Of a stretch of 64,000 nucleotides of DNA, positions 2,482-60,055 are shown one piece after another. The first letter of the stretch is position 1; each line of letters starts with the position of its first letter. The stretch lies in the IMG/VR virus record IMGVR_UViG_3300024308_000303. One strand, written 5' to 3'. This stretch comes from an uncultured virus (IMG/VR IMGVR_UViG_3300024308_000303). Its lineage: Duplodnaviria > Heunggongvirae > Uroviricota > Caudoviricetes. The position numbers and the translations under genes are program-made. Under the pieces are notes generated by a model. That model saw nothing but the letters and a program-made list of their open reading frames with translations, was not told where the DNA came from and did no database searches.

Positions 2482-2721
2482 ATGATTAAATCAATAGCAA
2501 TTTTTATTACATTTGTTCTCGTCTCAACAAGTTTGATGGCATCACCAACTATTATGTTCACAAACCCTGCATTCTTGTCAAAACCAAAAGAAAAACAAGC
2601 AAAAGAAAAAACAGAAACATATGACGCTGGTAAAATCATTTATCCAGTACAAAAAGACGATGGCAAAGACTGTTCTAAATCATCTGTAGACTGTACTTCC
2701 GAAGTGGAGAAAAATAAATGA
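2482..2721 (+). CDS. Small exported protein
   Basis: MIKSIAIFITFVLVSTSLMA looks like a signal peptide; start refined to this Met. Confidence 0.65.
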   Translation: MIKSIAIFITFVLVSTSLMASPTIMFTNPAFLSKPKEKQAKEKTETYDAGKIIYPVQKDDGKDCSKSSVDCTSEVEKNK

Positions 2722-3347
2722 CTTCATATGCAAAAATAAAAGAAAGACAACAAAAAAACAAAGAGTACGTTATTGAAAAACTTGAAGAAAACTATGGTTT
2801 CATATTCAACAAAACATTTGATGAAACAACCAAGAATTGTCATTTGAATGTAATTTGTCACACAAATTATGGGAAGATTAAAATTGAAATTCTCTATGGA
2901 TATGCGTTGATAAGATTAAATCCATTTATAAAATATGAAAAAGGAATTGTGACTTCAAAAATTGAAGCATTCAATGAACACCTTGCTATATTGACACCTC
3001 AATTAAAAATACTTGATTGTGTAAAATATAAAGTAAATGACAACAAAACAGATTCTATTATTAATATTAAATGGAAAAGTAATCTAACTCTTGAGATTGG
3101 TTACAGAAAAACCACACATGATACTTTTCGTGTTGAATTGGAAACAATGCCAATTGATCTATATTCTGGAAATTCAACCACTTCAATAGAGTATATTGAC
3201 TTTGAAATAAAAAACAAAAAAATAGTTTCAAACCATACTATAAATTGGCTTAAATGCTGGGTTCATGAATCACATGAAATTTCTGTAATGAAAAGAAAAG
3301 TTAATTATGAACAACTATCTGAATTAACAGATATTATGATTTACTAA
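2718..3347 (+). CDS. Hypothetical protein, paralog of 4007-4648; variant C-terminal tag
   Basis: Shares the G-x-I...IKYE block with 4007-4648; ends LTDIMIY. Confidence 0.8.
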   Translation: MTSYAKIKERQQKNKEYVIEKLEENYGFIFNKTFDETTKNCHLNVICHTNYGKIKIEILYGYALIRLNPFIKYEKGIVTSKIEAFNEHLAILTPQLKILDCVKYKVNDNKTDSIINIKWKSNLTLEIGYRKTTHDTFRVELETMPIDLYSGNSTTSIEYIDFEIKNKKIVSNHTINWLKCWVHESHEISVMKRKVNYEQLSELTDIMIY

Positions 3348-3384
3348 CAATTATGCTATACTGTCATTAACAATTGAGGATATT

Positions 3385-3960
3385 ATGGAAAAGCAAGAAA
3401 TTTTAAAGTATTTAGCAAATAACAATGTTAAAAATGGTGATGTTTTAAAAGAGTTCTTAGAAACTGACCAAGAACATTATCTAAGAAGTAACCAGTTCGG
3501 TCATATTACAGGATCTTCATTCATATTGAATGATACAATGGACGAAGCTTTGTTAATCTTACACAAAAAGTATAACAAATGGCTTGCGGCTGGTGGTCAT
3601 GTTGATGAAAATGAAACAGCAAAACAAGCCTCAAAAAGAGAATCTGGTGAAGAAGTTGGTCTTGATAAACTTGAATTGCTAAAACCAGAAATTTTTGATA
3701 TTGATGTACATAGAGTTCCAGCGGCTACGAAAAAAGACGTTTTTGAACCTGAACATTGGCATTTTGATGTGCGTTATTTATACAAAGCTGAGAAAGGTGC
3801 TAAAGTTGAGGCCAACATGGAAGAAACCAATGGTTTCAAATGGAATAATCTTAAAATGTTAACAACTGTTGATGATGAATCCATTAAACGTCAGGCAACT
3901 AAAGCAATAGAATTTGTGGAAAGTCTAAAAAACAAACCTAAAAGAAAATTCAAAATCTAA
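3385..3960 (+). CDS. Nudix hydrolase
   Basis: Nudix box GGHVDENETAKQASKRESGEEVG; GHITGS and HWHFDVRY motifs; basic tail KPKRKFKI. Confidence 0.92.
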   Translation: MEKQEILKYLANNNVKNGDVLKEFLETDQEHYLRSNQFGHITGSSFILNDTMDEALLILHKKYNKWLAAGGHVDENETAKQASKRESGEEVGLDKLELLKPEIFDIDVHRVPAATKKDVFEPEHWHFDVRYLYKAEKGAKVEANMEETNGFKWNNLKMLTTVDDESIKRQATKAIEFVESLKNKPKRKFKI

Positions 3961-4006
3961 ATCCACAACAATCATTTCCGAATGATTGTTTTTTTAGGAG
4001 AATATA

Positions 4007-4648
4007 ATGGCATCATTAGCATCTAGAATAGAAAAAGCAGAAGAAAGAATAGTTCTGATCAAAGAAAGGTTGTTAAACAATTATAATTTACTACTTGAAG
4101 AAAAAGTAAACAAAAACCAGTCCTATAAAAGCTTTGTATATAAGAGTTCATTTGGCGAAGTAGAAATAACCCTTGATAGTAGGTGTGCTTATATTTGTGT
4201 GCGAAATGTAATCAAATATGAAAATGAACAATTTATATCAAAAAACGAGACTATTAATGAAGTTCTTAAAGTTTTAAATAAGGAGCTTCAAATATTTGAT
4301 GCTTTAATGTATAAGAGACTAGCTGAGAAGCCACGAAGATTAAAAACTGCTCCACTTGTGGCTAATATGCATATTAAAATTCAATATCAAAAAAGTTTGA
4401 AAGATAGCTATTATATTACTGTAGCATCACTTAATAATGTATTGATGTTTGCAGATATATTCTCAGGAGAAAATGAGTTTAAATTCCCAGCAATGTTAGA
4501 ATTCTATATAAAGGATGGTAAATTACATGATTCCAATGAACTGAGAGAACTGAGAGAAAATATATGTAAAGGACATGGATTAGATTTAAACACCAAGAAT
4601 ATTAGATATAAAGATTTAGGCGACATAACAGAAATGGTAGAATATTAA
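4007..4648 (+). CDS. Hypothetical protein with C-terminal MxxY tag
   Basis: AGGAG RBS; ends ITEMVEY. Confidence 0.82.
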   Translation: MASLASRIEKAEERIVLIKERLLNNYNLLLEEKVNKNQSYKSFVYKSSFGEVEITLDSRCAYICVRNVIKYENEQFISKNETINEVLKVLNKELQIFDALMYKRLAEKPRRLKTAPLVANMHIKIQYQKSLKDSYYITVASLNNVLMFADIFSGENEFKFPAMLEFYIKDGKLHDSNELRELRENICKGHGLDLNTKNIRYKDLGDITEMVEY

Positions 4649-4701
4649 AAAATGATAAAAATAAAGCACTCATGAGAGTGCTTTTTAATTATTACAATAT
4701 T

Positions 4702-5380: not shown

Positions 5381-5386
5381 AATGCT

Positions 5387-5552: not shown

Positions 5553-5895
5553 GATATGTCTCGGTTGTTGATTAGAATATAAGTCTAATTATATAATTGT
5601 CAATAGTGTTTTTCCCGACATACAATGCTTTTTTAGTATATTATTGAATTTTACTTTGATAGAATAACAACTCCTTATGCTCTACAACAGACCTTAAAAA
5701 GTTGATTAAACGTCAAAATAAAGACGTTAATTATAATATAAAAAGTTAAAATTGAGAAATAGCCATTATTATGACATGTGTAAATTTAAGGTTACAAAAA
5801 TCAACCACAGAAATAAAGGTTATAGTATTATTATTGACAATCAAGCCTGTTTTTTGATAAAATAACCACAAATTTTATTGAAGGAATTACCAAGA

Positions 5896-6534
5896 ATGCA
5901 AAATAACAGAATATTTACACCAGAGAACTTTATAGAAACAACTGGCTTAATTATACCATCTGATGCTACTTTTACAATTGACCTACAAGAAGATTCATGT
6001 GACATAACTTCTAACTTTCGTATTGAAAAGACTAATGGATTTGTATATAGAAAGTTTTTTGAATATCAAGGAATACAATGTTCAGCAGGCTCAACAACCT
6101 ATGCAGTATCTGAAAATTATGAGAACTCATATAAACCAGCAGTATCATTATTAATACATGGACAATTATTGGATGGATTAAATTTAGATTTATTTTTAAA
6201 ATTCAACAATGAATCACTCAATAAACAAATTAAATTAAATGAAAAAGAATTGGCTATATATCTACAATGGAAAAATATTGATCCTAATAGCCTTGATAAC
6301 ATTTATGTAATTGTTGATTTTTATTATGACAACACATCAGCACTGAAACTTACCAAGATGGAAAGTGAAGTTAAGGTGAACTTAAAAGATAACAAAAATT
6401 GCAATGTAAGTAGAATTATGGAGAATGTTTTATCAACAAACGAAATGGATCAAATCAATATGAATTCCGATATCAAGGATATAGTCAGAAAATTAAAAGA
6501 TTTAGATATTGTGGAAGACATGGAGCGTTATTAA
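5896..6534 (+). CDS. Hypothetical protein with C-terminal MxxY tag
   Basis: AAGGA RBS before MQNN; TTGACA...TGATAAAAT promoter upstream; ends VEDMERY. Confidence 0.8.
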   Translation: MQNNRIFTPENFIETTGLIIPSDATFTIDLQEDSCDITSNFRIEKTNGFVYRKFFEYQGIQCSAGSTTYAVSENYENSYKPAVSLLIHGQLLDGLNLDLFLKFNNESLNKQIKLNEKELAIYLQWKNIDPNSLDNIYVIVDFYYDNTSALKLTKMESEVKVNLKDNKNCNVSRIMENVLSTNEMDQINMNSDIKDIVRKLKDLDIVEDMERY

Positions 6535-6556
6535 AAATGGTATGAAATCATACCAT

Positions 6557-6697
6557 TTATTTTTTGATCAATGAACAATCAAAAACATTGTTGCCAACAT
6601 AGAAAGAACCCACTTTTTGACATTCACTTGATACTGTACTATGAGCAAATACCCAACCTAAAACGAAACCAATTAGCATCATTATGAAAGTTTTCAT
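6557..6697 (-). CDS. Small membrane-anchored protein (46 aa, absent from ORF track)
   Basis: MKTFIMMLIGFVLGWVFAHSTVSSECQKVGSFYVGNNVFDCSLIKK; GAGG RBS; own TGTTATAAT promoter. Confidence 0.7.
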   Translation of the reverse strand: MKTFIMMLIGFVLGWVFAHSTVSSECQKVGSFYVGNNVFDCSLIKK

Positions 6698-7991: not shown

Positions 7992-8549
7992 ATGTATAAA
8001 GTTCAACGACCAACTGAAAGACAAATTATAAACATAATAGGCTTAGTGCTTAACAAACCGTATATTGTTAACTATAAACAAGAATTGTCACAAGAAGATG
8101 ACCACTCAATTTATTTTGGTGATTGTAAAATATTGGATGCAAGTAATAAATCAACAGTAGTAAATGTATCTATATTTGAGGAATCAAATTATATTTCAAT
8201 TAGAGGTTACATCAAAATCAATAAAGCCTATTCTGGTAAATTAACCAGTGCTATTGATTTAAAAAGTGACGAATTGAATAACTATATTAAAACAGTAGAA
8301 AAGAACTTTAAAAGGCTTCAAATTATACATAAAGAAGCTAAAGATTATAATTTGCAATGTATGTTCCAAATATATTACGATCCTAAAAAAGATACTAAAC
8401 ATTATTTAGATTTAAAATTAGTAAATGAAATGTGTGTAGATATCAAAGCATTAACTGATAGAAAGATGACAGAATTAGGTTATGGAAAATCCTATGAAAA
8501 AACAAGTTTAAGAGATTTGCAAACAGTAAAAGATATGATTGATATTTAA
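7992..8549 (+). CDS. Hypothetical protein with C-terminal MxxI tag
   Basis: GGAG RBS; TTGAAA...TGATATAAT promoter; ends VKDMIDI. Confidence 0.82.
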   Translation: MYKVQRPTERQIINIIGLVLNKPYIVNYKQELSQEDDHSIYFGDCKILDASNKSTVVNVSIFEESNYISIRGYIKINKAYSGKLTSAIDLKSDELNNYIKTVEKNFKRLQIIHKEAKDYNLQCMFQIYYDPKKDTKHYLDLKLVNEMCVDIKALTDRKMTELGYGKSYEKTSLRDLQTVKDMIDI

Positions 8550-8563
8550 AAATGTATGAATAT

Positions 8564-8591: not shown

Positions 8592-8602
8592 GTGCCTGTC
8601 AT

Positions 8603-9396: not shown

Positions 9397-10044
9397 TCAA
9401 ATATCCATCATTTGTAAGACACTAAGATAATTTTCAAAAGATTTTGATTGTCTATCAATATTATAACCAGCAACATAATTGAAATGATGATTGACGATAT
9501 TGAAAGATTCTGTATTGTAATCATAAGGTGTGGTTAAAGCTAAAATAACTTTAAGGCATTCAATAACCTGACGATCAGAACTTTTTTTATCTAATAATGT
9601 AAAAATGATAGTTAAAACATTCGTATCACTATTTTTCTGTATCTCATCTTTTGATGTTGGAAAATTTCCTAAGCAAACTGCCCGCATAGAGATTTCTCCC
9701 ATAACTGGCAAAGTATATTTAAACAAAAAATCACCTTCATTTTGTGCTCTAACAATCCGTTGAATCATATTCATCATAATTTCATCATGATAAAAACCAT
9801 TATCAAATTGGAATAAAAGGCTATTAGAATCATAACTGATAATATTAGAAATGTTACGACCATTTTTTTTATATTTATAATATGATTTTTCTGGACGTTT
9901 ATAATCTAAGCTAACTGTGAAATTAGAAACGCCTTCAATAAGGTGTAAAGCTTCAATCAGGCGATTTTCATAAAAAGATTTTGATGAAGTAATTCTGTTG
10001 AAAATATTGATTAATTCCAATCGTTGATAGGCTGTATTATACAT
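9397..10044 (-). CDS. Hypothetical protein with C-terminal MxxI tag
   Basis: GAGG RBS; ends LQMMDI. Confidence 0.8.
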   Translation of the reverse strand: MYNTAYQRLELINIFNRITSSKSFYENRLIEALHLIEGVSNFTVSLDYKRPEKSYYKYKKNGRNISNIISYDSNSLLFQFDNGFYHDEIMMNMIQRIVRAQNEGDFLFKYTLPVMGEISMRAVCLGNFPTSKDEIQKNSDTNVLTIIFTLLDKKSSDRQVIECLKVILALTTPYDYNTESFNIVNHHFNYVAGYNIDRQSKSFENYLSVLQMMDI

Positions 10045-12934: not shown

Positions 12935-13822
12935 TTAAATGTCCATCGCATTCTGCAGTAGCCTGATATTTTCATTAAATTTTTGAATATAATCACAAGT
13001 AAACTCTTTTTTAAAATCCAAAGGTTCAAATGGAGTTAAATCAGTCTTGAAAGGCAAAAAGAAATCATTAAAAATGAATGTTTGATTTTTAAAAAGCTCT
13101 TCATATTCTCCCATACTGTTAGCCATTGATGGGATACTATACAAATATTGTCTATCTTGTATAAGTTTTTTGTCATAGAATAAGCGTATAATCATAACAG
13201 TTTTAAATGAAGTTTGAGCAACATCAATTTCAACAATAGGTGCATTTAAAGGAACCATAGATATCTCCAGTTCAAACAAATTAGAATCATTAAATAGACA
13301 CCATTCAAAAACAGATCTAGAAAAACATGAATAATCAATTGCAAACATAGGTTTAAAGTTGTTATCAAAAACTTTACATGCACTGCTATTAAAATTATTA
13401 AAAGATTGATTTAATATTGAGTGAATATCTGACTGAAGCTTTGAATAGTGACAATCAGAGATTCTTAACCAATTTTTATCAAAAATATCAATGACTGTTA
13501 TATATTCATAAATTTGGCATTTCTCAGCCTTCACTATAACAAATGTAGAATCAACAGAATAAACATTGGTTTTTTGTATTTCCAATATATAGAAAGGAAG
13601 CGATTTAATTAATTCATCAAAATAATCTTGACCGCCTATTTGTTTAGCCCCAGTATAAAAATTGCGTTTTATCCTTTCTTCTTGATGCCCCAACAATTGC
13701 ATAACTATTTTATCATGCATTAGAAAATTAGCATGATCAAATGTATGAATATAACAGGTATCAAATATATTGTTTTTTTGACTGCGTAAGTTATCGATAA
13801 AGCTTTCAATTATAATTGTCAT
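12935..13822 (-). CDS. Tandem paralog family A, member 4
   Basis: C-terminal PFKTDLTPFEPLDFKKEFTCDYIQKFNENI...NAMDI. Confidence 0.85.
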   Translation of the reverse strand: MTIIIESFIDNLRSQKNNIFDTCYIHTFDHANFLMHDKIVMQLLGHQEERIKRNFYTGAKQIGGQDYFDELIKSLPFYILEIQKTNVYSVDSTFVIVKAEKCQIYEYITVIDIFDKNWLRISDCHYSKLQSDIHSILNQSFNNFNSSACKVFDNNFKPMFAIDYSCFSRSVFEWCLFNDSNLFELEISMVPLNAPIVEIDVAQTSFKTVMIIRLFYDKKLIQDRQYLYSIPSMANSMGEYEELFKNQTFIFNDFFLPFKTDLTPFEPLDFKKEFTCDYIQKFNENIRLLQNAMDI

Positions 13823-14655
13823 TAGATATCTTCCATTTCTTTTAAGTTTCGAATGTATTTTTCAAAGTTTTTTATATATTTTTTAGTTGTTGCCTTTTTG
13901 AAGTTCAAAGGCTCGTAAAGAGATAAATCAGTTGTGAATGGTGCTAAAAAGTCTATAATGAACTTATTCAAATACTGATTATAATTAACACCTTTTTTAA
14001 TAGTCTCATAAGGCTCTATTTGTGAACTAAATTCATAGAAAAGAAAACCATTTTCATACATTCTAAGAACAAGATGTAAATCAGATAACGCTAAAGGATG
14101 TTGCATTCCAATATTCTTGTCTAATAGAGAATATTCAAACTCAATCATAGAGTATTTGGATGTACCAAAAAAATCATCTTGGTTATGAAGATGAGCAATA
14201 TTTCTATTAAAAATTTTAAACTCTTTATTAAATGCACAATTATATTTATAACATTCACCAAGAACAGACTTTGGTACATGATTAGAAATATTAAAAGGAG
14301 TATTTAAATGTGAAGAAGAAGTCTTGATACTACCAATTAAATCAGAACTTATATATAAAATAGATATAAAATCACTATTGATTTGTTGAAAAATTATATA
14401 TGACTTTACTTTGTTAAGAAAAAAATCTTTTTCAACTTCAATTATATAAAATGGTAATAATGTTTTTAATCTCATTAAAACCTCATTGACATTATCCTCG
14501 ATTTTAGAATAATTATGAAAAGAAACTTTATCTGCAACATAATATAAATAATTAATATTATTGTTCATATTGTCAAAATCAATAAGTTTCAATGTGTATT
14601 TATTGTAATTAAAGGTTTTACATAAATAATCACCAAAAAAATTAACAAGTTCCAT
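13822..14655 (-). CDS. Tandem paralog family A, member 3
   Basis: PFTTDLSLYEPLNFKKATTKKYIKNF...EMEDI; start refined after GAGG. Confidence 0.85.
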   Translation of the reverse strand: MELVNFFGDYLCKTFNYNKYTLKLIDFDNMNNNINYLYYVADKVSFHNYSKIEDNVNEVLMRLKTLLPFYIIEVEKDFFLNKVKSYIIFQQINSDFISILYISSDLIGSIKTSSSHLNTPFNISNHVPKSVLGECYKYNCAFNKEFKIFNRNIAHLHNQDDFFGTSKYSMIEFEYSLLDKNIGMQHPLALSDLHLVLRMYENGFLFYEFSSQIEPYETIKKGVNYNQYLNKFIIDFLAPFTTDLSLYEPLNFKKATTKKYIKNFEKYIRNLKEMEDI

Positions 14656-14665
14656 AATGTTACCT

Positions 14666-15502
14666 CTAATAATCACGCATGGCTTGTATGCCAGCAATAT
14701 GGGTATTAAAATTATTAATGTAATCTAATGTAAGTTCTTTTTCAAAATTTAAAGGCATATATTCTGAGAGGTCTGTCCTAAATGGTTCAAATAATTTAAA
14801 ATACATATTATTAAATTTTATAGTGTACTCTTCATCTTTAGTGAATTCAAAATCAAAATCAAATGATTGAGAACCCAATAATACTTTATTTGAATACAAA
14901 TTAACAATAATTCTAAAATCTTCAATCATAGTGTCATTACAATCTTCTGAAACATGGTCATATTTTAATACAATAGTTTCTAATTCAACAAAACCTGAAA
15001 TGTCCTTACCAAAATCTTCATTTTTATTATGTAGAATAACTGAATGTTTAAAATGAAATCCATAATCTGTATTATGATGAATACCATTCTCATGATATTT
15101 TACAATAAATCCGTAATTCAAAGCAGTTATAACTGAGCCTACAAAAAATCTAATTTTTAAGTCGTCAAATTCTCGCAATAAAACATCAATATCACTCAAA
15201 GAATTAGATGCACCATAACATCTAATATCACCAACTGATTCATCAGCACAAACAATATAGTCAGTAACAGCAACAGATTTAAATTTTTTAATACATTCTA
15301 TAACAAAGCAATCAACTTTACTTGCAATATAATCCAATTTAAGAGCATAATCAGAATGTTTATTTAAATTTATATAATGTTGAACTTTGTTAATGTAATT
15401 AACATGAGTAGAATAATCATCAGCCTTCAACTGTTTAATATTGAAAGAGTCATAACCATAATTACTTAGTATAAAATTTGCGAATTCTATAGCTTTATCC
15501 AT
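14666..15502 (-). CDS. Tandem paralog family A, member 2
   Basis: PFRTDLSEYMPLNFEKELTLDYINNF...AMRDY. Confidence 0.85.
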   Translation of the reverse strand: MDKAIEFANFILSNYGYDSFNIKQLKADDYSTHVNYINKVQHYINLNKHSDYALKLDYIASKVDCFVIECIKKFKSVAVTDYIVCADESVGDIRCYGASNSLSDIDVLLREFDDLKIRFFVGSVITALNYGFIVKYHENGIHHNTDYGFHFKHSVILHNKNEDFGKDISGFVELETIVLKYDHVSEDCNDTMIEDFRIIVNLYSNKVLLGSQSFDFDFEFTKDEEYTIKFNNMYFKLFEPFRTDLSEYMPLNFEKELTLDYINNFNTHIAGIQAMRDY

Positions 15503-16299
15503 TATATATCCCTCATAGATTGAATACAGGAAATATTTTTATTAAAGTTATCAATATATTCAAGTGTTAACTCTTTTTTAAATTGTAAAGGTTGATATTC
15601 GTCTAGCTCTGTAGTGTAGGGTTTCAAAACTTCATATGCATTTTGTTTAAATGTATCTCCGTCATCAACATTGTTGGTAAAGCGATGCTCATTCAATAAA
15701 ACTCCTTCATAATAGAGTTGAGCAATAGAATCTATTTGGTCATTTTCAGAAGAACGTTTTCTTAATATTTGAAAATAAGCAGAAGAATTATTAGGATCAC
15801 CAAAGAATCCTTTCTTACAAGATATTTGAATCAATGTACGATGAAAATAACAATTATCAGAATAATCGTGATAATAGACGAATTGTTCTGTTTGCAAGGC
15901 TATATGTGAACGGAGATTAAACTTTCTTGTAAATAGAGGATCATGTATTCTTAGTTTTGAAACGTCATCTAATATAGAACTTGTAGTAACAAACAATACC
16001 TGAATAAAATCTAAAGGTAATTTTTTAACAATGGCATAATGACATAAACCAGAAATGTTATGGTCGTCATCAAAAGAAACAATAGAAACTGGATAATAAG
16101 TCTCAATCAGAGAAATAATATAGTCAGACTTTAAATTTTTAAAATCATCCCTAAGACTGTATTGTTTCTTTGAATTAACTATTTTTGAAGAAATACCGTT
16201 TAATTTATCAATATTTGAATCATCAATATCCATGATTGATGATTTATTAAATCCTAAGTTATTCAATACATTCTGTATATAGTTGTCAATTGTTTCCAT
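15502..16299 (-). CDS. Tandem paralog family A, member 1
   Basis: PYTTELDEYQPLQFKKELTLEYIDNF...SMRDI. Confidence 0.85.
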   Translation of the reverse strand: METIDNYIQNVLNNLGFNKSSIMDIDDSNIDKLNGISSKIVNSKKQYSLRDDFKNLKSDYIISLIETYYPVSIVSFDDDHNISGLCHYAIVKKLPLDFIQVLFVTTSSILDDVSKLRIHDPLFTRKFNLRSHIALQTEQFVYYHDYSDNCYFHRTLIQISCKKGFFGDPNNSSAYFQILRKRSSENDQIDSIAQLYYEGVLLNEHRFTNNVDDGDTFKQNAYEVLKPYTTELDEYQPLQFKKELTLEYIDNFNKNISCIQSMRDI

Positions 16300-18301: not shown

Positions 18302-18925
18302 TTAATAATTCAACATGTCAATCAACACAATGTCATCTTGTGTCATTTTGGCCATAGACATTTTATTGTCTTCAAGATATTGAATGATTTCATAAATATT
18401 GTATTGTTTATTATCAATAAATACATCACCAAATCCAAAAGTAACAACACCAACATTACTTAGAATTTTCTGATTGCCAAAAAGTGCAACATGAATATCT
18501 AAGTTATCACTTCTCTTAAACAGTTTATAACAGTCATGCATACTAAAAAGCGTATAATCATAATTTGATAAACTTAAAGTAAAACAGAAATTAGGAACTG
18601 TGAAAAGAAATATAATCAAAAAACCCAAAGGAAAGACAGACGAAAGAAATAGCCAATATACCAAAGAAGTCACACCAAGAAAATAGTTAAACGGTGCCAA
18701 ATAATGATAATAGGTATTGTTACTTTTAGGCTTCAAGAAATACTCAGCCGATACAGCAAAGCCAAAACTACATACAGCCATTATAAACTGGGAAATAAAA
18801 GCTGGATCTTCTTTGTAATTAGTAACCCAATATAAGCTAACTAATGCTCCAATACCACTAAGCCTTGAAAAGAACTTAATGGATGGAATCACTTCAAACA
18901 TCTTTGATTTGATATTTAGTTGCAT
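18302..18925 (-). CDS. Membrane protein with C-terminal MxxY tag (paralog of 41947-42627)
   Basis: About 4 TM segments, then a soluble tail ending MTQDDIVLIDMLNY. Confidence 0.8.
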   Translation of the reverse strand: MQLNIKSKMFEVIPSIKFFSRLSGIGALVSLYWVTNYKEDPAFISQFIMAVCSFGFAVSAEYFLKPKSNNTYYHYLAPFNYFLGVTSLVYWLFLSSVFPLGFLIIFLFTVPNFCFTLSLSNYDYTLFSMHDCYKLFKRSDNLDIHVALFGNQKILSNVGVVTFGFGDVFIDNKQYNIYEIIQYLEDNKMSMAKMTQDDIVLIDMLNY

Positions 18926-26305: not shown

Positions 26306-26929
26306 TTAAATAGGTGGCATAATGAGTGAAAAATCTCGACTAGCATAATAGTTTTCTATTAATTGATTACTAGATCGATCTTCTATAATAGATTTTTCTT
26401 TAATAGCTAAATAACTTTTGAAGTCATCCAATGTACGTTCATTTAGAAGATGGGTCAGAATTTTTTCATAAAATACAGAACTAAAATTATATATCAATGG
26501 AGAATATTCTCGAAAAGATTCTGTATCTGCATAAGACATCACTTTTGCATTGTTAAAAATAGGATAAAAGTATAAATTAATACCATAATCTTTATTATAA
26601 GATAAAGAGAAATAATAGACATTATCATCATATTCATATTTTAAAGCGTAATGTTTAAATCGAGTACCATCATTAACAGTAAAGCTTGATTTTGTTAATC
26701 CAAATGCAGATATAAAATCATCATAGATATAAAATTGCAAATAGAACATTATATAATGTGCTGGCGAATCATTAGACAAGTTATAAGTAATGTTTCTAAA
26801 TAAAGGTGATAAAACATGCCAACTCTTGAATGAGACAACATTGTATGATTCATCAGAATCAATAGTCGCCTTCATAATTTTTAATATTTTTTTATCATTA
26901 ACTATTTCGATCATGTACAGTTTCTCCAA
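26306..26929 (-). CDS. Paralog pair B, member 2; MxxI tag
   Basis: KHYALKYEY..YYFSLS shared with 26932-27534; ends SLIMPPI. Confidence 0.82.
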   Translation of the reverse strand: MEKLYMIEIVNDKKILKIMKATIDSDESYNVVSFKSWHVLSPLFRNITYNLSNDSPAHYIMFYLQFYIYDDFISAFGLTKSSFTVNDGTRFKHYALKYEYDDNVYYFSLSYNKDYGINLYFYPIFNNAKVMSYADTESFREYSPLIYNFSSVFYEKILTHLLNERTLDDFKSYLAIKEKSIIEDRSSNQLIENYYASRDFSLIMPPI

Positions 26930-26931: not shown

Positions 26932-27534
26932 TTAAATAGTGGGCATAATAATTGAAAAATTTCTATCTTTATTAAAGCTATCCAAAATATCATGTGTACT
27001 TGGATAGTGTTTAAAACCAGCTTTAATTGTATCCAAATCATAATTCTCAAAAAGATGATTCAAAATTTTCAAGAATAATTCCCGACAAAAATTATACATT
27101 AAAGGCTCATATTTAATATAAGATGGAGAGTTATATGTATTATCAATTTCAATGTTGCTAAGTGTTGTATAATTAATTAAATCAATTCCTCTGTTTTTAT
27201 TATGACTTAACGAAAAGTAATATGTTTCATTGTTATAGTCAAACTTAAGAGCATAATGTTTATAGCGACGATAAGTATCAACTACAAAACTGCTTTTTTC
27301 AATATTGAATAATTTAAGAAAATCTTTATAACATGTACAATTAAAATAACTTATTAATTGAAACTGAGGCGTAGGTCTTCCATCTTTATCGTAAGAAAGA
27401 TAAATAAAACATGATGAATTATAAAGCCAGTTATTTATTGAAACTACATCAGAATCAGATGATGATTTATAACTATCTCTCATTGATTTAATGATTTTTT
27501 TATCTGTTACCAATGTAATCATCAAAAACTCCAA
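26932..27534 (-). CDS. Paralog pair B, member 1; MxxI tag
   Basis: KHYALKFDY..YYFSLS; ends SIIMPTI. Confidence 0.82.
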   Translation of the reverse strand: MEFLMITLVTDKKIIKSMRDSYKSSSDSDVVSINNWLYNSSCFIYLSYDKDGRPTPQFQLISYFNCTCYKDFLKLFNIEKSSFVVDTYRRYKHYALKFDYNNETYYFSLSHNKNRGIDLINYTTLSNIEIDNTYNSPSYIKYEPLMYNFCRELFLKILNHLFENYDLDTIKAGFKHYPSTHDILDSFNKDRNFSIIMPTI

Positions 27535-30573: not shown

Positions 30574-31266
30574 ATGAATGAGTTTTTGAATTCAAGAAAA
30601 AAAATATCTGATGGTAGTATTATGTTGGTACTCAATAGCTTAGATATTGCAGAACATAAGAAAATAGTAAACTTTGAATTATTAAATGAAATTGCACAAA
30701 AAATTATTGATAAATTCAATCTTGATATTAATATGGATGATAAAAATCGTCTTTGCTCATTGTACAAAGAAATGTTAAATGTATATGACGATAATCTAAC
30801 AAGGAATGCAAATTTAAAATTACATTCAAACATGGGTGGACATAATTGTCCAGAATGGTTTAAGGATTTTATTTCAAAGTATCCACAACATTTTAGTCTC
30901 TCTAAAACATATACAGATTATAAATCAGAATTAAAAAAATTTGAAACATTATACTTCTTTTATAATGGAGATAATAATAGAATTCCAAGTATTGTTTTTG
31001 AATATGATAAACAATTAAATTTTGTATCTATGAACTATGTAGAAGAATATAGAAATTCAAATGTAATAAAAAAAATTAGCAAAAAAGAAGACATGATTAG
31101 TGATGACAAAAATGATGAATTTTTACTGCTTAAAAGATTTATTCATCTAGATGATACAGAGCTAAAAGAAATATATCCATCAATTAATGATTGTGGAGCA
31201 AACGTAATAAATGTTAAGGAATTAAAAGAATCATTATCTGTTATAGAAATGTTAAACTATAATTAA
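30574..31266 (+). CDS. Hypothetical protein with near-terminal MxxY tag
   Basis: Ends SVIEMLNYN. Confidence 0.78.
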   Translation: MNEFLNSRKKISDGSIMLVLNSLDIAEHKKIVNFELLNEIAQKIIDKFNLDINMDDKNRLCSLYKEMLNVYDDNLTRNANLKLHSNMGGHNCPEWFKDFISKYPQHFSLSKTYTDYKSELKKFETLYFFYNGDNNRIPSIVFEYDKQLNFVSMNYVEEYRNSNVIKKISKKEDMISDDKNDEFLLLKRFIHLDDTELKEIYPSINDCGANVINVKELKESLSVIEMLNYN

Positions 31267-38071: not shown

Positions 38072-38740
38072 TTAGATATTCATCATATCAACCAAAATAA
38101 CTAAATCATCTGTAAAAATTCTTTTAGACATATCATAACAATCATCAAGATTCATATTTACCAAATTTGGAAAATGTTCACTCATCTCTCGTAAATTAAG
38201 TTTCTTGCCACAATAATGGAATGAAGCATCAATGACAGAATCTATGGCTGTGTTATAGATAATGTAATTTATAAAAACATTATTATAGTTTAAATCTTTG
38301 TCCATTTCTTTTTTATTAACACGAGAATAAGTAAACATATGTAAATTTTTTATTTTATGTAATTTAAACATATAATCAATCTTAGATGGTGTAAATCTAT
38401 TATCTCGTCCCCAACCAATTTTATAAAACCACTCTTTAATTTTTATATTTCCTTTTTCATCATAATGTATTGTTGTTGGCAATGATTCCTTACGATAAAC
38501 AACAGTACATTCGTCGTCAGAATGAAATTCTTTAAAATTTATTTGTTTTGTATTATGCCTGTATACGAGCATAATAAAACAGGTGTCAGAAATTTTAAGA
38601 CAAAAGACAGCCGATTCCTCACCATCTGAAAGAACGAAAAAGTTTTCATTAACTAAAGAATAAGGAGAAACAACAAACACAACACATTGATCATCATGCT
38701 CAAGAGTTAACAAATCTTCAAAGGCAGTAATATTTCTCAA
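38072..38740 (-). CDS. Hypothetical protein with MxxI tag
   Basis: TTG start after GGAG; ends LVDMMNI. Confidence 0.8.
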   Translation of the reverse strand: MRNITAFEDLLTLEHDDQCVVFVVSPYSLVNENFFVLSDGEESAVFCLKISDTCFIMLVYRHNTKQINFKEFHSDDECTVVYRKESLPTTIHYDEKGNIKIKEWFYKIGWGRDNRFTPSKIDYMFKLHKIKNLHMFTYSRVNKKEMDKDLNYNNVFINYIIYNTAIDSVIDASFHYCGKKLNLREMSEHFPNLVNMNLDDCYDMSKRIFTDDLVILVDMMNI

Positions 38741-38760: not shown

Positions 38761-39465
38761 TTAAATACAGATCATTTCAATCAAAGTGAATAATTCTTTG
38801 ATTTCTTTATTTACTAATGAAACTTTATCAAGAGATCTAAATTTAATGTGCCGACATCTTAATTCAGGGTATTGCATAAAAAGTTCATGAAGCCTTACAG
38901 AACTGTTATTAAATGTAATCAACATATCTACCAAATAATGATTTTCATCTACTGTGATTTTCTTAATAGGTAACTTGTTTCCTGTATATTGATCAAATGT
39001 AAGATTATAATGAAAAATATTATTTTCAATAGTAGATGGTGCATTCTTTTTTTCATGCAATTTTTTTAATGACCAAGAAAAATTTTTGCAATCATAACGA
39101 ATAGCATAAACTCTTGTTTTACGAATTGGTTTATAAGGTAAACTATAATTCCAATTGATAGTATCTACAAAGAATTGTCTTTCATGAACAAGGTTAGTTT
39201 TCAAATCAATAAGAAAATACAATTTCATGCCTTTTGAAAGGACATAAAACATAGAAAAATTGTACCTTGATTCATCAAAATAAACATCATACTTCATTTC
39301 AGTTACATATTGATGCATAACTTTATCACACCAATCATCAGTAGAGATTTCAGATGACATTAAAACTTCTGGATCTAATTCAAATGTGTAATCATCACCC
39401 TTGAATGATTCAATCTTCAATTCTTCAACTGATGAAATATATTTATGTTTTCTTTTTATTGGCAT
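38761..39465 (-). CDS. Hypothetical protein with MxxI tag
   Basis: Ends LIEMICI; probably related to 38072-38740. Confidence 0.8.
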   Translation of the reverse strand: MPIKRKHKYISSVEELKIESFKGDDYTFELDPEVLMSSEISTDDWCDKVMHQYVTEMKYDVYFDESRYNFSMFYVLSKGMKLYFLIDLKTNLVHERQFFVDTINWNYSLPYKPIRKTRVYAIRYDCKNFSWSLKKLHEKKNAPSTIENNIFHYNLTFDQYTGNKLPIKKITVDENHYLVDMLITFNNSSVRLHELFMQYPELRCRHIKFRSLDKVSLVNKEIKELFTLIEMICI

Positions 39466-41946: not shown

Positions 41947-42627
41947 TCAAATAGACATCATTTTAATCATTTCAATATCATCTTGAGTCAATGATGTTAA
42001 TGGAATTCCAAAATCAGATGAATAGCTAATTAAAGAATTATAATTAATAGATGTTTCATTCCAAAAAGTTTCATCAATTGAAAACAAAAAACTACCAACC
42101 CTGAATTTATTATTAGGAATTTTTTTAGGATTTTGAATTTGATTTTCAACATAGGTTAATTCTGGCAATTTTTCACATGATTTATAAACGTCTGCAAGAA
42201 TATGAACCAACCTGTAATGTGCTGATTTTGTTAGTTTCAAAGATTCAACAACAGGACTGAACATCCAGAATGAAAAAACAGCAGTAAATCCATAATAGAC
42301 AAACTTCAATCCTTCCAAATTAGGTGAAAAATCAGATATAAAGAAAAACCCATAGAGAAAAGCCAACGCTGGTAGAACAATAAAGAATATAATACTATAT
42401 AGAAAATGGAAAATACTATATTCAAGAATAATCCCATGTTTAAAATTTAAATACGATTTATAAGCAAGAAAACCTATAATTGGAACAAGAGTACAAATAA
42501 ATATAACATGTGCATTGATATAAAAAGCACTAATCAAAATCAAAGAATAAATTGAAATTAACAAAAAAAGAAAATCTTTTTTAATGAATTCCAAAGATTT
42601 GAATGTAAAAGAACTGTAATTTTTCAT
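41947..42627 (-). CDS. Membrane protein with MxxI tag
   Basis: About 4 TM; ends LTQDDIEMIKMMSI. Confidence 0.8.
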   Translation of the reverse strand: MKNYSSFTFKSLEFIKKDFLFLLISIYSLILISAFYINAHVIFICTLVPIIGFLAYKSYLNFKHGIILEYSIFHFLYSIIFFIVLPALAFLYGFFFISDFSPNLEGLKFVYYGFTAVFSFWMFSPVVESLKLTKSAHYRLVHILADVYKSCEKLPELTYVENQIQNPKKIPNNKFRVGSFLFSIDETFWNETSINYNSLISYSSDFGIPLTSLTQDDIEMIKMMSI

Positions 42628-48491: not shown

Positions 48492-49313
48492 TCAAATAGT
48501 TAACATATCGTAGACATCAATAAAGTTCAAAAGCTCTTCTTTTTTGTTGGTATAATGACGAATAAAAATATTTTCCAACATTTGAATCCAACAGCGATCA
48601 GTAAAATTAATGGAATAATAATTAATAGCACTTGATGCAACATAATCTGGTGACTCATAATATGCTTTCAAAAATTTTAAATAAACTAAAATATCTTCAA
48701 TTTTGTTAAGTCCTTTGCTTGGATAACTTGAAGAACTGCTATTGTTAGTGGATTTAAAATGATAACATGAATTATAAAGATTTTTTGATGTAGAGAAGTA
48801 ATAGACAAAAAAAAGTCTACTCTGTAATTCTGAATCAAGTTTAATGTAATCTTTCAATATCAGTTTATAGAGAGATGTACTGTCAGGGCTTAAATCAATT
48901 TCAAAACCACATGATACATTTAATGATTTGAAATGATTAATATTCAAAATGTCCAAAATAGATGAATTATACACCTCATTATGAGAATAATTTAAAAAAT
49001 GACTTTTAGAATGATGGGCATAATATACATCACCATTTGGTTTATAATGAATTACGCAAGAAATATCAATTACATGATCAAAAAATTTGTAATATAGATT
49101 AAGATTAATGTACTCTTTTTTATGTTTAGGTACATATTTCATATAACTAGAAAAAACCAAATTAGACTTAATCTCATCAGAATTAAGCTCTAAATTATTG
49201 TTACATTTGATTAATTGTGATAACAAAATAGAATAAATGTTATCAACTAAAAGATTAATAGAGGATTCTGAATGCTCATTGAAGTCATCAAATTTTGGAA
49301 AAACAATATTCAT
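48492..49313 (-). CDS. Hypothetical protein with MxxI tag
   Basis: GAGG RBS; ends VYDMLTI. Confidence 0.8.
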   Translation of the reverse strand: MNIVFPKFDDFNEHSESSINLLVDNIYSILLSQLIKCNNNLELNSDEIKSNLVFSSYMKYVPKHKKEYINLNLYYKFFDHVIDISCVIHYKPNGDVYYAHHSKSHFLNYSHNEVYNSSILDILNINHFKSLNVSCGFEIDLSPDSTSLYKLILKDYIKLDSELQSRLFFVYYFSTSKNLYNSCYHFKSTNNSSSSSYPSKGLNKIEDILVYLKFLKAYYESPDYVASSAINYYSINFTDRCWIQMLENIFIRHYTNKKEELLNFIDVYDMLTI

Positions 49314-50656: not shown

Positions 50657-51175
50657 TTAACAGTTTTGGCTATCAAAAATATGCGAAAACATAAAACAAT
50701 CATTTAAACTGAAGATGTCAAAATAAGTAGCATGAGAAGGTACTTTAGAATCTTTTGGATAAACATTTAAATCCAATAAAAATTGTTCAAGCTCAAAAAT
50801 GTCAGATTTACGTTCAACATCTGTTTCATATTCAGTATTATTAATGAATTCAATAATCATGTGCTTAAATAGCGTACCATTAACAATATATGAGCCATTG
50901 TGATCATCACCTTCACGACCACCAGTGACACAAAACATGACAACTTCGCCAGCGTAGGTAACATAAAACAATTTCCAAACACGGCGATGATCAAATTTAT
51001 GGTCAATAATGTAATGAATATCAATATTATCAAAAACAGTTTTACAATCTAACAAATAAGCAAGATTAAAAACAAGAGAATAATAATGACCAGTTAAAAC
51101 AGAAACATCTTTAGATTTTGAAACAACTGGATAATCAAGCAAATCATTGAAAGTCCACATAATTACCTCAAACAT
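50657..51175 (-). CDS. Hypothetical protein
   Basis: FDHRRVW..GGREGDDH motif; the start may be MWTF. Confidence 0.78.
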   Translation of the reverse strand: MFEVIMWTFNDLLDYPVVSKSKDVSVLTGHYYSLVFNLAYLLDCKTVFDNIDIHYIIDHKFDHRRVWKLFYVTYAGEVVMFCVTGGREGDDHNGSYIVNGTLFKHMIIEFINNTEYETDVERKSDIFELEQFLLDLNVYPKDSKVPSHATYFDIFSLNDCFMFSHIFDSQNC

Positions 51176-51815
51176 TGACCATTTCAGTTAAAACACCATA
51201 ATGTTTAAAATCAAAACTACCATCAGAATTATACTCAAGCATGCCATCCCAAGCAGCAATAGCTTTATTCCTAACCAAACCTAAACGGTTGTTTTTGATA
51301 TTACCATCCAAATCAAAAGCAATATACATTGAAGTATGATTGGCAGAACCAATTTTATTTTTATTTGAAACTAATGATGACAAAGAAGAATTGGGATGGT
51401 CAAAATTTAAACGGATTTCATTTTCGTCGGAGTCTTGCCAATCAAAATCAAAATCCATAAATACTTTAACCTGCTCATGATAAGAAATCATTTTATTATT
51501 AACATGATCAAGTAAACGAATCCCTTCAAAAAAGTCAACGTATTGATTGCCAATGTCAACAATCTTCATTAATCTATCACTAAGTTTGACTTTAGGGACA
51601 ATTTTTCCATTTTTATATTTTAAAAAGTTGAAATTAACGGAGTCACCAATTTCACCATGTAATAGCACAGCCTTATTATGACTTGTAGTAAGACTAAATT
51701 CAAATGCAGCAGTTTGCTTAATGGTTTTTAAATCAACATCAAATAAATTAAAAACTTGATTATTTTGTTTTAAAATAAGCTCAAGTTCATTTTGATTTAA
51801 ACGAGGATATGTCAT
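51168..51815 (-). CDS. Hypothetical protein with MxxV tag
   Basis: LKYKNGK block resembles 2718-3347 and 4007-4648; ends LTEMVNV. Confidence 0.8.
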   Translation of the reverse strand: MTYPRLNQNELELILKQNNQVFNLFDVDLKTIKQTAAFEFSLTTSHNKAVLLHGEIGDSVNFNFLKYKNGKIVPKVKLSDRLMKIVDIGNQYVDFFEGIRLLDHVNNKMISYHEQVKVFMDFDFDWQDSDENEIRLNFDHPNSSLSSLVSNKNKIGSANHTSMYIAFDLDGNIKNNRLGLVRNKAIAAWDGMLEYNSDGSFDFKHYGVLTEMVNV

Positions 51816-52174: not shown

Positions 52175-52203
52175 ATTATAGCAAAATATTAATCAATATT
52201 CAA
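52175..52203 (-). promoter_or_regulatory. sigma70-like promoter of the 23S-mimic RNA
   Basis: TTGAAT-17 bp-TATAAT with extended TG; the -35 lies in the last codons of the upstream gene. Confidence 0.8.
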
Positions 52204-53002
52204 CCATTTCTACAACTGGTTTAATATGTTCTTCAAAATAATCACAATACTTTTTTGTCAATTCTCGATGACAAGAATTGTCGATAACTGAAATAGACTT
52301 AGTTAAACATGTAAATGGAAGCAAAAATTCATTAAAATGTTTCGCTATATCATCCAATGTAGATTTTCTTTCATCAATCAAAAATTGTTTTTCCTTTATG
52401 ACACCATCGAGAGAAATCAATTCAAGATGGAAAACATTCTTGTAATATGAAATTGAAAATTCCGCCTTTTCTGTTGATGTAGAATAGGGATCAAAAGTAT
52501 ACTCACCAGAACGATAATCTCTGCTAAGATAATACGAAACTTGATTCACCAATTTTAAACCATCGAATACAACATTGCTCACTTTATAATCTAAACAAAC
52601 GCCTTTAGCTGAAAATGAGATACGACCGCCATAGGGTAATTCAATAGTCGAAAATGGCTGAATGATAGAAATGAAATTATCATAATTTTTAAAAAACGCA
52701 TATTTTTTATCAGTCAAAAATCGAAGAGATCTTGAAAAAACACAAACTGAAAAAGGAATCATCTTTTTTAGTTCCATAACAGTCTCATCAATATTAGGCT
52801 CTTCATTATTAAACTTGTTTGTGAGAATATAATCTGTAGAATAAGCCGGATTGCGAGATTTAACACTGTCCATAAAGAGGCCAATGTAATTATTGAAATT
52901 ATTATAATCAATATGATAAATTTCAAAACTATTATGATTAAATAGCTTATTATTTACAAGATCAGCAAATTTATTAATGAGTGAATTATTTGTAGTATTC
53001 AT
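52193..53002 (-). CDS. Paralog family A distant member; MxxY tag
   Basis: FLLPFT...RELTKKYCDYFEEHIKPVVEMVEY; start refined after GGAG. Confidence 0.82.
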   Translation of the reverse strand: MNTTNNSLINKFADLVNNKLFNHNSFEIYHIDYNNFNNYIGLFMDSVKSRNPAYSTDYILTNKFNNEEPNIDETVMELKKMIPFSVCVFSRSLRFLTDKKYAFFKNYDNFISIIQPFSTIELPYGGRISFSAKGVCLDYKVSNVVFDGLKLVNQVSYYLSRDYRSGEYTFDPYSTSTEKAEFSISYYKNVFHLELISLDGVIKEKQFLIDERKSTLDDIAKHFNEFLLPFTCLTKSISVIDNSCHRELTKKYCDYFEEHIKPVVEMVEY

Positions 53003-53017
53003 GATGTTTAACTCCAA

Positions 53018-58338: not shown

Positions 58339-58583
58339 AATGTAACTCCTAAGACAGTTAAATAAATTTTTTAAATCGTTAAATCTTCTCAATCATCAAT
58401 CTTAATATATTTAACTAAGTTTTACATTGGCTTCATAAATCATTCTCCTAAAAAACCATAATCAGAATTGTTAAGTATCGTGTGCGTTTTAAAAATCAAG
58501 CTTGCATGCATATTGGTTTGCCGCGATTAGCTCTGTATTTTACACGACTTCGGTGTTTAAACCTTATCTTTTTAACTTGCTGT

Positions 58584-58612
58584 ATTCTAACACTTTTTTT
58601 CTTATTTGGCAA
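58584..58612 (-). promoter_or_regulatory. sigma70-like promoter with a long leader
   Basis: TTGCCA-17 bp-TAGAAT with extended TG. Confidence 0.7.
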
Positions 58613-58679
58613 GCTTTTTTATTTTTATGCTTGTTTGTTGTGTTGAAGCTATAGTATCAATTTGAAATTTTTTTTGCAA

Positions 58680-59063
58680 CTACTTTTTGTACTTTCTTAC
58701 TGTTTTCTTTTCAAAAAAATGAAGATGTCTCATACCAACACAATCAAGATATTGAACACCAATTACAGACCCACAGCATAAACATTCGATTGGCTTGTCA
58801 TAATTACCACAACACCCCCAACCTTTGCTGTATTTTAATTGTTGAGGATCTAAAAAACAATCGTCTCCAGTAATGTAATCATTTTTATATTTTAACGTAT
58901 ATGCTGATAACCACATAACATGACGGAAAAGAGAAAAACTGCCTTTACAAACAAAATTCTCATCACCAGAAATACCCAATCGTCTGATTGGATAAAGTGA
59001 TGTTGTATTAATCATTTGACATTTTCTACAAGCTATATACATAAGAATTAAGAGGTCTGACAA
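58680..59063 (-). CDS. Cys-rich (zinc-binding) hypothetical protein
   Basis: CRKC, GCCG, CLCCG, DC. Confidence 0.75.
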   Translation of the reverse strand: MSDLLILMYIACRKCQMINTTSLYPIRRLGISGDENFVCKGSFSLFRHVMWLSAYTLKYKNDYITGDDCFLDPQQLKYSKGWGCCGNYDKPIECLCCGSVIGVQYLDCVGMRHLHFFEKKTVRKYKK

Positions 59064-59290
59064 GTATATTTAAGTTTGAATGAATCAACAGACTCTTTAT
59101 TATGAACACCATAATTAGAGCTAAAATAAACAACACCATCAACAACACGATTAACAGTTAGCAGAATAGGTGTGCAATATTTATCAACAATAGTATCCCC
59201 CATCAACCAAAGCTGACCATTTTTCGGTTCAGGTTGTTCTACCTTTTTATTGGAAAACAAATTTTTAAAGATATTCATGTGAATCTCCAA
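59048..59290 (-). CDS. Hypothetical protein
   Basis: PKNGQLW motif; the start is probably MNIF. Confidence 0.68.
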   Translation of the reverse strand: MEIHMNIFKNLFSNKKVEQPEPKNGQLWLMGDTIVDKYCTPILLTVNRVVDGVVYFSSNYGVHNKESVDSFKLKYTCQTS

Positions 59291-59293
59291 TCG

Positions 59294-60055
59294 TTAATAA
59301 GTAATAATTTCATTCAAATCAATTTCATTAACAAACTGATCCTTATAAGTATCATATTTTACCAAATATTGTTGATAAAAGCTATTTAAATCTTTATTAC
59401 TTGTATCAAATCCATATGATTTAAGAACATTTGACCCATAATTCATACCAAGGATCATTAAATGAACAAAAGTGTGCTCTTTTGAAAGATCAATATCTGT
59501 TGCCAGTGTTTTAGACATTGCTTTTGCTTTTGGATTTTCATTAATCAAATTAACATTTTGATAGAAAACTCTTGAAATAAAAGCATTAGAATGATCGAAT
59601 TCATATTCTATATATCTACCATTTGAAATGGGAACATGGATTTTAAAATTTGGCAAAAATTTATCACCTGATAGTGAACAACAAAGTAGATTAGGACAAT
59701 CAGCAATAAAATGAACACCCAATACTTTAGCAATATCAGTTGATGCAGCAGTATCATTGGGTTCAATAGAACAACTGATACTGTTATAATCACCAACAGT
59801 ATCAAAATACATCACTACTTTAACTGGAACGAGCACTTTATTGACAGCAGCTTTAAAAATAGCACTAACCGTCTTAGCACTGTTTGAGACAAATACAGGA
59901 ATAGAAGTTGTAGCAGTACATTCAATTTCTACTTCAACTTTATTTGTTGAAGCAATAGATTTAATTTTTAGTTTAAATATATCTAAAGCATATTGATATA
60001 CATCTAAAGGTAATGCGTCCATAAGACGCATTTCTTTGAAAGTGTAACTAAACAT
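59294..60055 (-). CDS. Hypothetical protein with variant C-terminal tag
   Basis: Ends DLNEIITY. Confidence 0.78.
   Translation of the reverse strand: MFSYTFKEMRLMDALPLDVYQYALDIFKLKIKSIASTNKVEVEIECTATTSIPVFVSNSAKTVSAIFKAAVNKVLVPVKVVMYFDTVGDYNSISCSIEPNDTAASTDIAKVLGVHFIADCPNLLCCSLSGDKFLPNFKIHVPISNGRYIEYEFDHSNAFISRVFYQNVNLINENPKAKAMSKTLATDIDLSKEHTFVHLMILGMNYGSNVLKSYGFDTSNKDLNSFYQQYLVKYDTYKDQFVNEIDLNEIITY

Follow-up and report, generated by a model that had tools for sequence, protein, structure and literature searches.

We analyzed a stretch of DNA 64,000 nucleotides long from an uncultured virus of the Caudoviricetes (IMG/VR record IMGVR_UViG_3300024308_000303), called the window here at its full length, and found that about 18 otherwise dissimilar early proteins encoded in it end, as read from their sequences, in one and the same acidic helix. 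An original prediction made from the letters alone had listed 20 open reading frames (ORFs) whose products finish in a five-residue tag, typically [D/E]-M-x-x-[I/Y/V] before the stop codon, and had taken this tag for an address or docking element used by several apparently unrelated protein families. All 20 of the quoted tails are found in the translations, and the tag is real, but it is only the end of a longer conserved element that takes in a helix of 12–14 residues. Both the motif and the way it is distributed among dissimilar bodies of 185–295 amino acids (aa) are new. We call the ORFs that end in it carriers and name each by its low coordinate, so that in the five carriers on the + strand (2718, 4007, 5878, 7992, and 30574) the tail lies at the other end of the ORF, as at 4604–4645 in carrier 4007.

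The tail is enriched, extended, and strictly C-terminal

For counting we used 101 non-overlapping ORFs, each of at least 60 aa. The strict form of the tag, M-x-x-[I/Y/V]-stop, closes 16 of these 101 ORFs as against 0.53 expected from composition (binomial P 3.8e-19), and the same pattern occurs at 0.49% of internal positions (90/18,299), which bears out the predicted enrichment over background. The strict carriers are confined to one size class: they make up 16 of the 38 ORFs of 180–300 aa and are absent from the 17 ORFs of 60–100 aa, the 37 of 100–180 aa, and the 9 of more than 300 aa (0/63 outside the class). When the tails are aligned from the C-terminus, the conserved element exceeds five residues and takes the form [ST]xx[DE]-φ-x-x-φ-x-[DEQ]-M-x-[DNE]-[IY]-COOH, where φ is a hydrophobic residue. 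From its sequence, this extended motif is predicted to be a helix N-cap followed by an acidic amphipathic helix of 12–14 residues, and the net charge of the tails is indeed acidic, at about -1 to -3. One extra residue is present in only 1 of 18 tails, that of carrier 30574, where it is an Asn.

We then scored the tails with a 14-residue position matrix, leaving each of the 13 sequence groups described below out of training in turn. In 11 of the 13 groups, at least one held-out tail beats all 135 non-carrier C-termini and, set against 20,700 internal windows, ranks in the top 4e-4. The pair 26306/26932, with prolines in its IMPPI and IMPTI endings, fails and 59294 is marginal. When group B is wholly left out, three of its five tails score poorly, yet these can be aligned with the two high-scoring ones. 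The full matrix gives the first 16 ranks in the whole ORF set to C-terminal windows; the best window outside the carrier tails ranks 17th and belongs to an ORF of 94 aa overlapping a longer gene. With this matrix, tail-like scores are never reached by windows inside an ORF, and the motif is strictly C-terminal. A literature search returned no paper that, by title or abstract, describes a C-terminal motif shared by early paralogs of jumbo phages, and a profile of the tail gave 0 matches to PDB sequences at E<=10. The same profile also gave 0 matches in the record of the Ralstonia phage RsoM2USA, a result that is uninformative because it lacks a positive control.

The constraint acts on the protein and is retained in orthologs

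The tails differ in the codons they use for Asp, Glu, Ile, Leu, and Val, all three stop codons (TAA, TGA, and TAG) are used, and the DNA 3′ of the stop is unrelated among carriers, being a terminator in some, a promoter in others, and an overlapping start in still others. Since synonymous codons, stops, and downstream DNA all vary, we conclude that the constraint, as judged from the sequences, acts on the protein and not on the DNA, as originally proposed.

Relatives were found on only a few contigs, of 30–185 kilobases, and the orthologs on them keep the ending. In nine of nine ortholog pairs the C-terminal end coincides, with bodies that are 36–92% identical. The two orthologs of group A carrier 4007 (93% and 68% identity) retain TEMVEY, those of group C carrier 18302 (86% and 80%) retain IEMLNY or IDMMNY, and those of group B carrier 13822 (72% and 60%) end in LKEMEDI and LKEMENI. 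Also in group B, ortholog P0010 of 14666 ends in IQTMRDY and ortholog P0011 of 15502 in IEDMRTI. A search of 1.84 billion representative proteins with the group B profile returned nine proteins at E<=0.001, of which seven are true family members, and endings in this family include IQTMRDY, IEDMRTI, IKEMIEI, LENIINI, and similar ones. The other two matches were rejected as spurious: one is a 2,559-aa protein matched over 12 short stretches, and the other is a 289-aa protein matched in its N-terminal part only and without the tail ending.

The carrier bodies fall into many groups

BLAST and phmmer sorted the carriers into 13 groups, among them group A (2718 and 4007), group B (12935, 13822, 14666, 15502, and 52193), group C (18302 and 41947, a weak pairing), group D (26306 and 26932), and seven singletons. 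Carriers 5878 and 51168 share a weak internal link of 38 aa (E 1e-4). In profile-profile comparisons with hhalign, which covered all 78 group pairs, the probability did not rise above 6.6%, and those alignments that reach the C-terminus cover the tail only. When orthologs were added and the last 90 residues compared, 33 profile pairs aligned, in each case over the last 10–19 columns only, and no similarity was left in these 33 pairs after the last 12 residues were cut away. Iterative searches with hidden Markov models (HMMs) of a database trimmed of tails linked no groups. In group C, moreover, three to four hydrophobic segments replace the soluble N-terminal body. By these sequence comparisons, at least 11 groups share no detectable body similarity, in agreement with the original description of several apparently unrelated families, both soluble and membrane-bound. 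Full-length homology among all carriers, which the original prediction had named as the finding that would speak against it, was looked for and was not found, although the common size class, raised body scores, and a similar order of helices and strands hint at kinship. A Y-E-P-L...N-F element seen by eye ahead of the tail in groups B and D and in 48492 also points toward kinship. The carriers thus probably represent several old lineages, some of them related to each other.

Ordinary paralogs in the window can be compared with the carriers. Tail-less paralog pairs are found at 10066–11616 (-), with zinc-ribbon motifs, at 43885–46951 (-), with products of about 370 aa, and, more weakly, between 32512–33933 (+) and 62057–63868 (-). 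Within such pairs the C-termini differ: ORF 10066 ends in VQYFD and ORF 10825 in VQYHDNY, and the ends of ORFs 43885 and 45830 differ too.

The tail in structure models

An AF2 model of group B carrier 13822, built from an alignment of 11 sequences, has a mean predicted local distance difference test score (pLDDT) of 78 and a predicted template modeling score (pTM) of 0.72. It is alpha-plus-beta and includes two beta-meanders; of the three helices at its C-terminus, the last (residues 258–276) is the tail. The C-terminal ~37 residues of the model have low confidence (means of 55–64 over 10-residue blocks), whereas the blocks of the body mostly have 76–94, with three short dips to 47–71. This same tail includes some of the few residues that are conserved within group B. 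The combination of low modeled confidence with conservation suggests a segment that settles only on binding, and a poorly packed terminal helix is a possible alternative explanation of the model. The group A model is poor (pLDDT 43), and its order of helices and strands resembles that of the group B model. Searches with the group B model found no match at E<=1e-3 in the PDB or BFVD with Foldseek, and with VIA-align the best Z of 6.6 is at noise level. Look-alikes of 7992 and P0001 in the Protein Atlas scored below 0.9 on poor models, and none was usable.

The carrier genes

None of the 20 carriers scores above threshold in Pfam or PHROGs, nor do any of the eight tested against NCBIfam, in keeping with the original statement that no carrier is a recognizable enzyme. 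Carriers do not differ from 64 non-carriers in isoelectric point, charge, or Cys content, and they are slightly richer in Asn, Gln, Ser, and Thr.

The two group A carriers lie on the + strand at 2718..3347 (209 aa), with the variant tail LSELTDIMIY that has Ile at -4, and at 4007..4648 (213 aa), with the tail LGDITEMVEY and a left-out score of 12.7. They are paralogous (E 1e-12), their tails align, and a terminator lies 3′ of carrier 4007 at 4663–4684. Also on the + strand are carrier 5878 (5878..6534, 218 aa, tail LDIVEDMERY) and carrier 7992 (7992..8549, 185 aa, tail LQTVKDMIDI, left-out score 13.4), each with its own promoter and terminator, so that promoter-gene-terminator units stand alone around both. 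The signals of carrier 5878 are a promoter-like site at 5834–5863 and a terminator at 6535–6558, and those of carrier 7992 are the promoter TGATATAAT at 7946–7954 and a terminator at 8561–8594. The last + strand carrier, 30574 (30574..31266, 230 aa), is the sole extended one, with the tail SLSVIEMLNY plus the extra Asn, and it has a left-out score of 17.8 once this last residue is removed.

On the - strand, group B comprises 12935..13822 (295 aa, variant tail IRLLQNAMDI), 13822..14697 (tail IRNLKEMEDI, with a likely true start that gives 277 aa), 14666..15502 (278 aa, tail IAGIQAMRDY), 15502..16299 (265 aa, tail ISCIQSMRDI), and, at a distance, 52193..53017 (tail IKPVVEMVEY, left-out score 6.5). 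The first four form a tandem array (12935–16299) of which carrier 12935 is the last gene, and stop and start codons overlap as TAATG at two of its junctions, one of them at the start of 12935, which overlaps the upstream stop codon. These overlaps suggest that genes of the array may be translationally coupled. The two group C carriers, both with three to four hydrophobic N-terminal segments, are 18302..18925 (-; 207 aa, tail DIVLIDMLNY, left-out score 11.9), in which these segments precede a soluble C-terminal region of ~80 aa, and the membrane-type carrier 41947..42627 (-; 226 aa, tail DIEMIKMMSI), which matches 18302 weakly (E 3.6e-4).

Singletons on the - strand include 9397..10044 (215 aa, tail YLSVLQMMDI, left-out score 12.1), the tandem neighbors 38072..38740 (222 aa, tail LVILVDMMNI, 13.7) and 38761..39465 (234 aa, tail LFTLIEMICI, 11.4), and 48492..49313 (273 aa, tail FIDVYDMLTI, 11.2). 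Carrier 51168..51815 (-; 215 aa, tail YGVLTEMVNV, left-out score 10.3) has an extended -10 promoter, TGCTATAAT, at 51841–51849. Three ORFs are less secure. Those of group D, 26306..26929 (-; 207 aa, ending IMPPI, left-out score -17.4) and 26932..27534 (-; 200 aa, ending IMPTI, -1.6), are paralogous (E 1e-32) and doubtful members; 26306 fits the M..I-stop pattern but not the extended helix motif, and 61 of 135 non-carrier C-termini score equally high. ORF 59294..60055 (-; 253 aa) is a marginal member that ends in EIDLNEIITY, with Ile at -4, and has a left-out score of 1.7, which 1 of 135 non-carrier C-termini equals.

Genomic setting

The window has a G+C content of 27–33%, and its genes are short and tightly packed, with the minus strand predominating. 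Shine-Dalgarno sites and extended -10 promoters lie upstream of genes, and many genes are followed by terminators made of a hairpin plus a run of T. The extended -10 box TGnTATAAT occurs 42 times in the whole window as against 8.5±2.4 times in shuffles, frequently 25–60 bases 5′ of a start codon, and in the first 20 kilobases (kb) there are 16 terminator-like sites as against 6.4±2.4 expected. By contrast, neither the T4 late promoter motif TATAAATA (13 observed, 14 expected) nor the mimivirus early motif AAAATTGA (14 observed, 24 expected) is enriched in the window. An origin from a giant virus was rejected, since the mimivirus motif is not enriched and promoters, ribosome-binding sites, and terminators of bacterial type are present.

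Genes in the window that can be recognized include those for a RegB-like endoribonuclease (12060–12512, -), an Rnl1-type RNA ligase (27574–28710, -), and an Rnl2-type RNA ligase (34572–35657, -), which together make up an RNA cleavage and repair set resembling that of T4. Others encode a NUDIX protein, an AlkB-like oxygenase, a deoxycytidylate (dCMP) deaminase, a methyltransferase, a GNAT protein, an S26 signal peptidase, and a tRNA-Leu. By sequence, these genes look like those that large T4-like phages typically have in their early or accessory class, and for this reason we treat the window as the early region of a large phage, which is probably an uncultured phage of T4-like or jumbo type. 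The best relative of the Rnl1 protein belongs to the 344-kb Ralstonia phage RsoM2USA (42% identity). A megablast search of 50,697 phage records with 9 kb of the window found no close DNA relative, and tblastn with carrier 4007 found no relative among sequenced phages. Locus searches gave no match to P0001 or alignment A1 in genome, viral, and metagenome contigs and none to carrier 4007 in viral contigs. For proteins identical to those of the window (entries P0001 and P0016), the longest contig on record has 1,539,155 bases and may be a very large phage, a host chromosome, or an assembly join. Family scans of the window proteins recognized no clamp, polymerase, or gp55, and no structural gene, a shell gene included, was recognized in the window.

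The S26 (LepB-like) signal peptidase (49382–50005, -) adjoins carrier 48492 and was considered as an enzyme that might process the tails. With a membrane segment at its N-terminus and the usual motifs around Ser and Lys, it is most likely active outside the cytoplasm, and the candidate was set aside with no link to the tails shown. Two ORFs near its gene, 28779–29321 and 56725–57540, have N-termini resembling signal peptides. Elsewhere in the window, a 155-aa ORF (20931–21398, -) matches only positions 126–251 of a bacterial topoisomerase model and may be a fragment or part of a split gene; it is directly adjoined by the gene for tRNA-Leu(CAG) (21413–21499, -). A 479-aa protein (16679–18118, -) has only the C-terminal mobile (phosphohistidine) domain of phosphoenolpyruvate-utilizing enzymes and matches phrog_11532, a family of unknown function.

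Proposed docking and its alternatives

We give an even chance to the reading that the tail is a helix by which all carriers dock on one partner in the cytoplasm. This reading is the most economical because the tail is strictly terminal, acidic and amphipathic, and present on dissimilar early proteins that are both soluble and membrane-bound. The terminal helix would fold or settle only upon binding, with a free carboxylate on its last residue, and would recruit the variable bodies to a single shared partner in the cytoplasm, a hub made by the phage or by the host; the bodies would have expanded and diversified as a family with the docking end held fixed. By the positive-inside rule, the tail-bearing end of the group C proteins should face the cytoplasm, and it is from this likely topology of the membrane carriers that we infer a cytoplasmic partner. 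Every tail is acidic, which argues against pairing of tails with one another, so that a tail-tail zipper is disfavored; a partner with a groove that is basic or hydrophobic would suit such tails better. The anchoring at the C-terminus, the dissimilar bodies, and the retention in orthologs all fit the shared address or docking element of the original prediction, and no partner, compartment, or protease that would complete it was identified. A more specific version, for which we hold tentative and clearly lower expectations, is an address code in which one hub reads a free ...[DE]-M-x-x-[IY]-COOH and gathers early effectors at one site. Such a hub might be a clamp-like toolbelt, a factor for sorting or assembly, or a machine of the host, and a modular plug of this kind would let the phage freely swap effector bodies, whether soluble or membrane-bound. 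A T4-type sliding clamp, counted within the docking reading, is by analogy a long shot as the hub: the tails resemble clamp epitopes over a short stretch of low complexity, they lack the aromatic residues that are typical there, and membrane-anchored ligands of a clamp would be odd.

Several results weigh against docking, the first being that no docking partner was found. The identity of orthologs in the last seven residues (50/63) exceeds that in the bodies (1354/2002) only modestly (P 0.055). Smith-Waterman scores of the bodies average 39.5 between carriers versus 34.7 against 46 control ORFs (Mann-Whitney U test, 2e-16), a difference to which the richness of carriers in Asn, Gln, Ser, and Thr may contribute, and the group A profile matches 51168 and 5878 collinearly, at a level that is not significant. 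Finally, the restriction of the tail to proteins of 180–300 aa points to common descent, and the helix could be part of a shared fold. These last points lead to what we consider a rather unlikely yet serious rival, simple old paralogy, in which one ancestor of ~200–290 aa gave rise to all carriers, the bodies diverged, and the last helix was kept for folding and not as an address. Besides the size class shared by all 16 strict carriers and the raised body scores, this rival draws on the internal paralogy of several groups, the 38-aa stretch common to 5878 and 51168, and the resemblance between the group B model and the poor group A model in how helices and strands follow one another. It has more difficulty with the loss of all cross-group similarity once the tail is removed, with the membrane segments that stand in place of the N-terminal body in group C, and with a helix that lies, in the group B model, within the C-terminal stretch of low confidence. 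Nor would it account easily for the contrast with ordinary paralogs in the window, whose C-termini differ, whereas the carriers stop exactly three residues after the Met with one exception.

Tags at the C-terminus can also mark proteins for degradation, as do ssrA and the tail of lambda CII that is recognized by FtsH, and the tail could likewise be a degron that is read by an AAA+ protease or adaptor of the host or phage so that the early proteins are cleared together at the end of the early phase. The strict dependence on a free C-terminus, the early-gene setting, the occurrence on both membrane and soluble proteins, and the low confidence with which the terminal segment is modeled would all suit a degron. 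We nevertheless regard it as improbable, since the motif is not known to resemble any degron and nothing in the window indicates a protease dedicated to the task, the S26 peptidase most likely being active outside the cytoplasm. Packaging into virions, which the original prediction had also offered, is less likely because the carriers sit behind early promoters of host type, whereas packaged internal proteins would be expected to be expressed late with structural genes and to lose a targeting peptide to the prohead protease. A signal in the nucleic acid where genes end (the ribosome-binding site, promoter, or terminator belonging to the next gene) could be imagined from the two group B stop codons that overlap the next start as TAATG, and chance could be imagined in so AT-rich a genome. 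Codons, stops, downstream DNA, and the next feature all differ among the genes, however, and the probability of the tails arising from composition is 4e-19, so both of these explanations are refuted in practice.

Significance

If the docking plug is true, it provides a direct experimental handle on about one in five genes of the region (~18 of 101 ORFs), all of which are unannotated. A single tail peptide could then be used to pull out the hub, which would reveal the target of the repertoire. It would also mean that phages outside the T4 clamp paradigm organize large sets of effectors through one short C-terminal motif, which could be sought as a class in the genomes of other phages and reused as a small targeting tag. 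If the tail is merely the last helix of an old family, the carriers are a further example of an expanded and fast-diverging family of early genes.

Comparison with known systems

Jumbo and T4-type phages have hyperplastic regions and tandem arrays of expanded, fast-diverging, unannotated early genes. Compared with such arrays, the carriers are larger (185–295 aa), are spread over 57 kb on both strands, and share the extreme C-terminus only.

Sorting of phage proteins is known from chimalliviruses, in which a large phage delivers some of its proteins selectively to a single destination, the phage nucleus, as we propose here for the carriers. For this PicA pathway, the cited report describes a folded recognition surface and, within what it covers, no N- or C-terminal signal and no conserved motif (PMC11087766). 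Family scans recognized no chimallivirus marker in the window. The cargo-loading peptides of encapsulins also bear comparison: as the cited accounts present them, a short C-terminal peptide directs different cargos to a shell with the phage capsid fold (PMC11866011, PMC8346489), so that a short C-terminal peptide is common to different proteins and has one protein partner, which in our case is a proposed one. They differ in that there is no demonstrable resemblance in sequence and in that the genes described here lie behind early host-type promoters and not among structural genes.

Among phages, the clamp-binding epitopes of T4 are the precedent with the best documentation. The polymerase gp43 and the proteins gp33 and gp55 are described as having highly similar and interchangeable hydrophobic-acidic C-terminal epitopes that bind the clamp (PMC2988020). 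Like the tails described here, these epitopes are, on that description, short, acidic-hydrophobic, at or near the C-terminus, and carried by functionally different phage proteins. In public records, T4 gp43 ends in SLDFLFG and gp55 in SLDFLYEAND, and other polymerases of the T4 family end in SLFDMFDF (Mosigvirus), SLEDLFDFF, SLNDLFGDW, SLEFLFG, and SLEDLFG. The DMFDF of the Mosigvirus polymerase has the same D-M-φ-D-φ-COOH pattern as the DMIDI of carrier 7992, and QMMDI and EMEDI in the window may be compared with it. The T4-family consensus, however, is S-L-x-[DEF]-[LM]-F, with aromatics and 0–3 trailing residues, whereas the tails described here have neither the Ser-Leu start nor the Phe, end strictly at Ile or Tyr, and extend upstream as a helix of 12–14 residues. 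Unlike the T4 clamp ligands, moreover, these tails are found on ~18 proteins of unknown function, and two of the proteins that carry them are membrane proteins.

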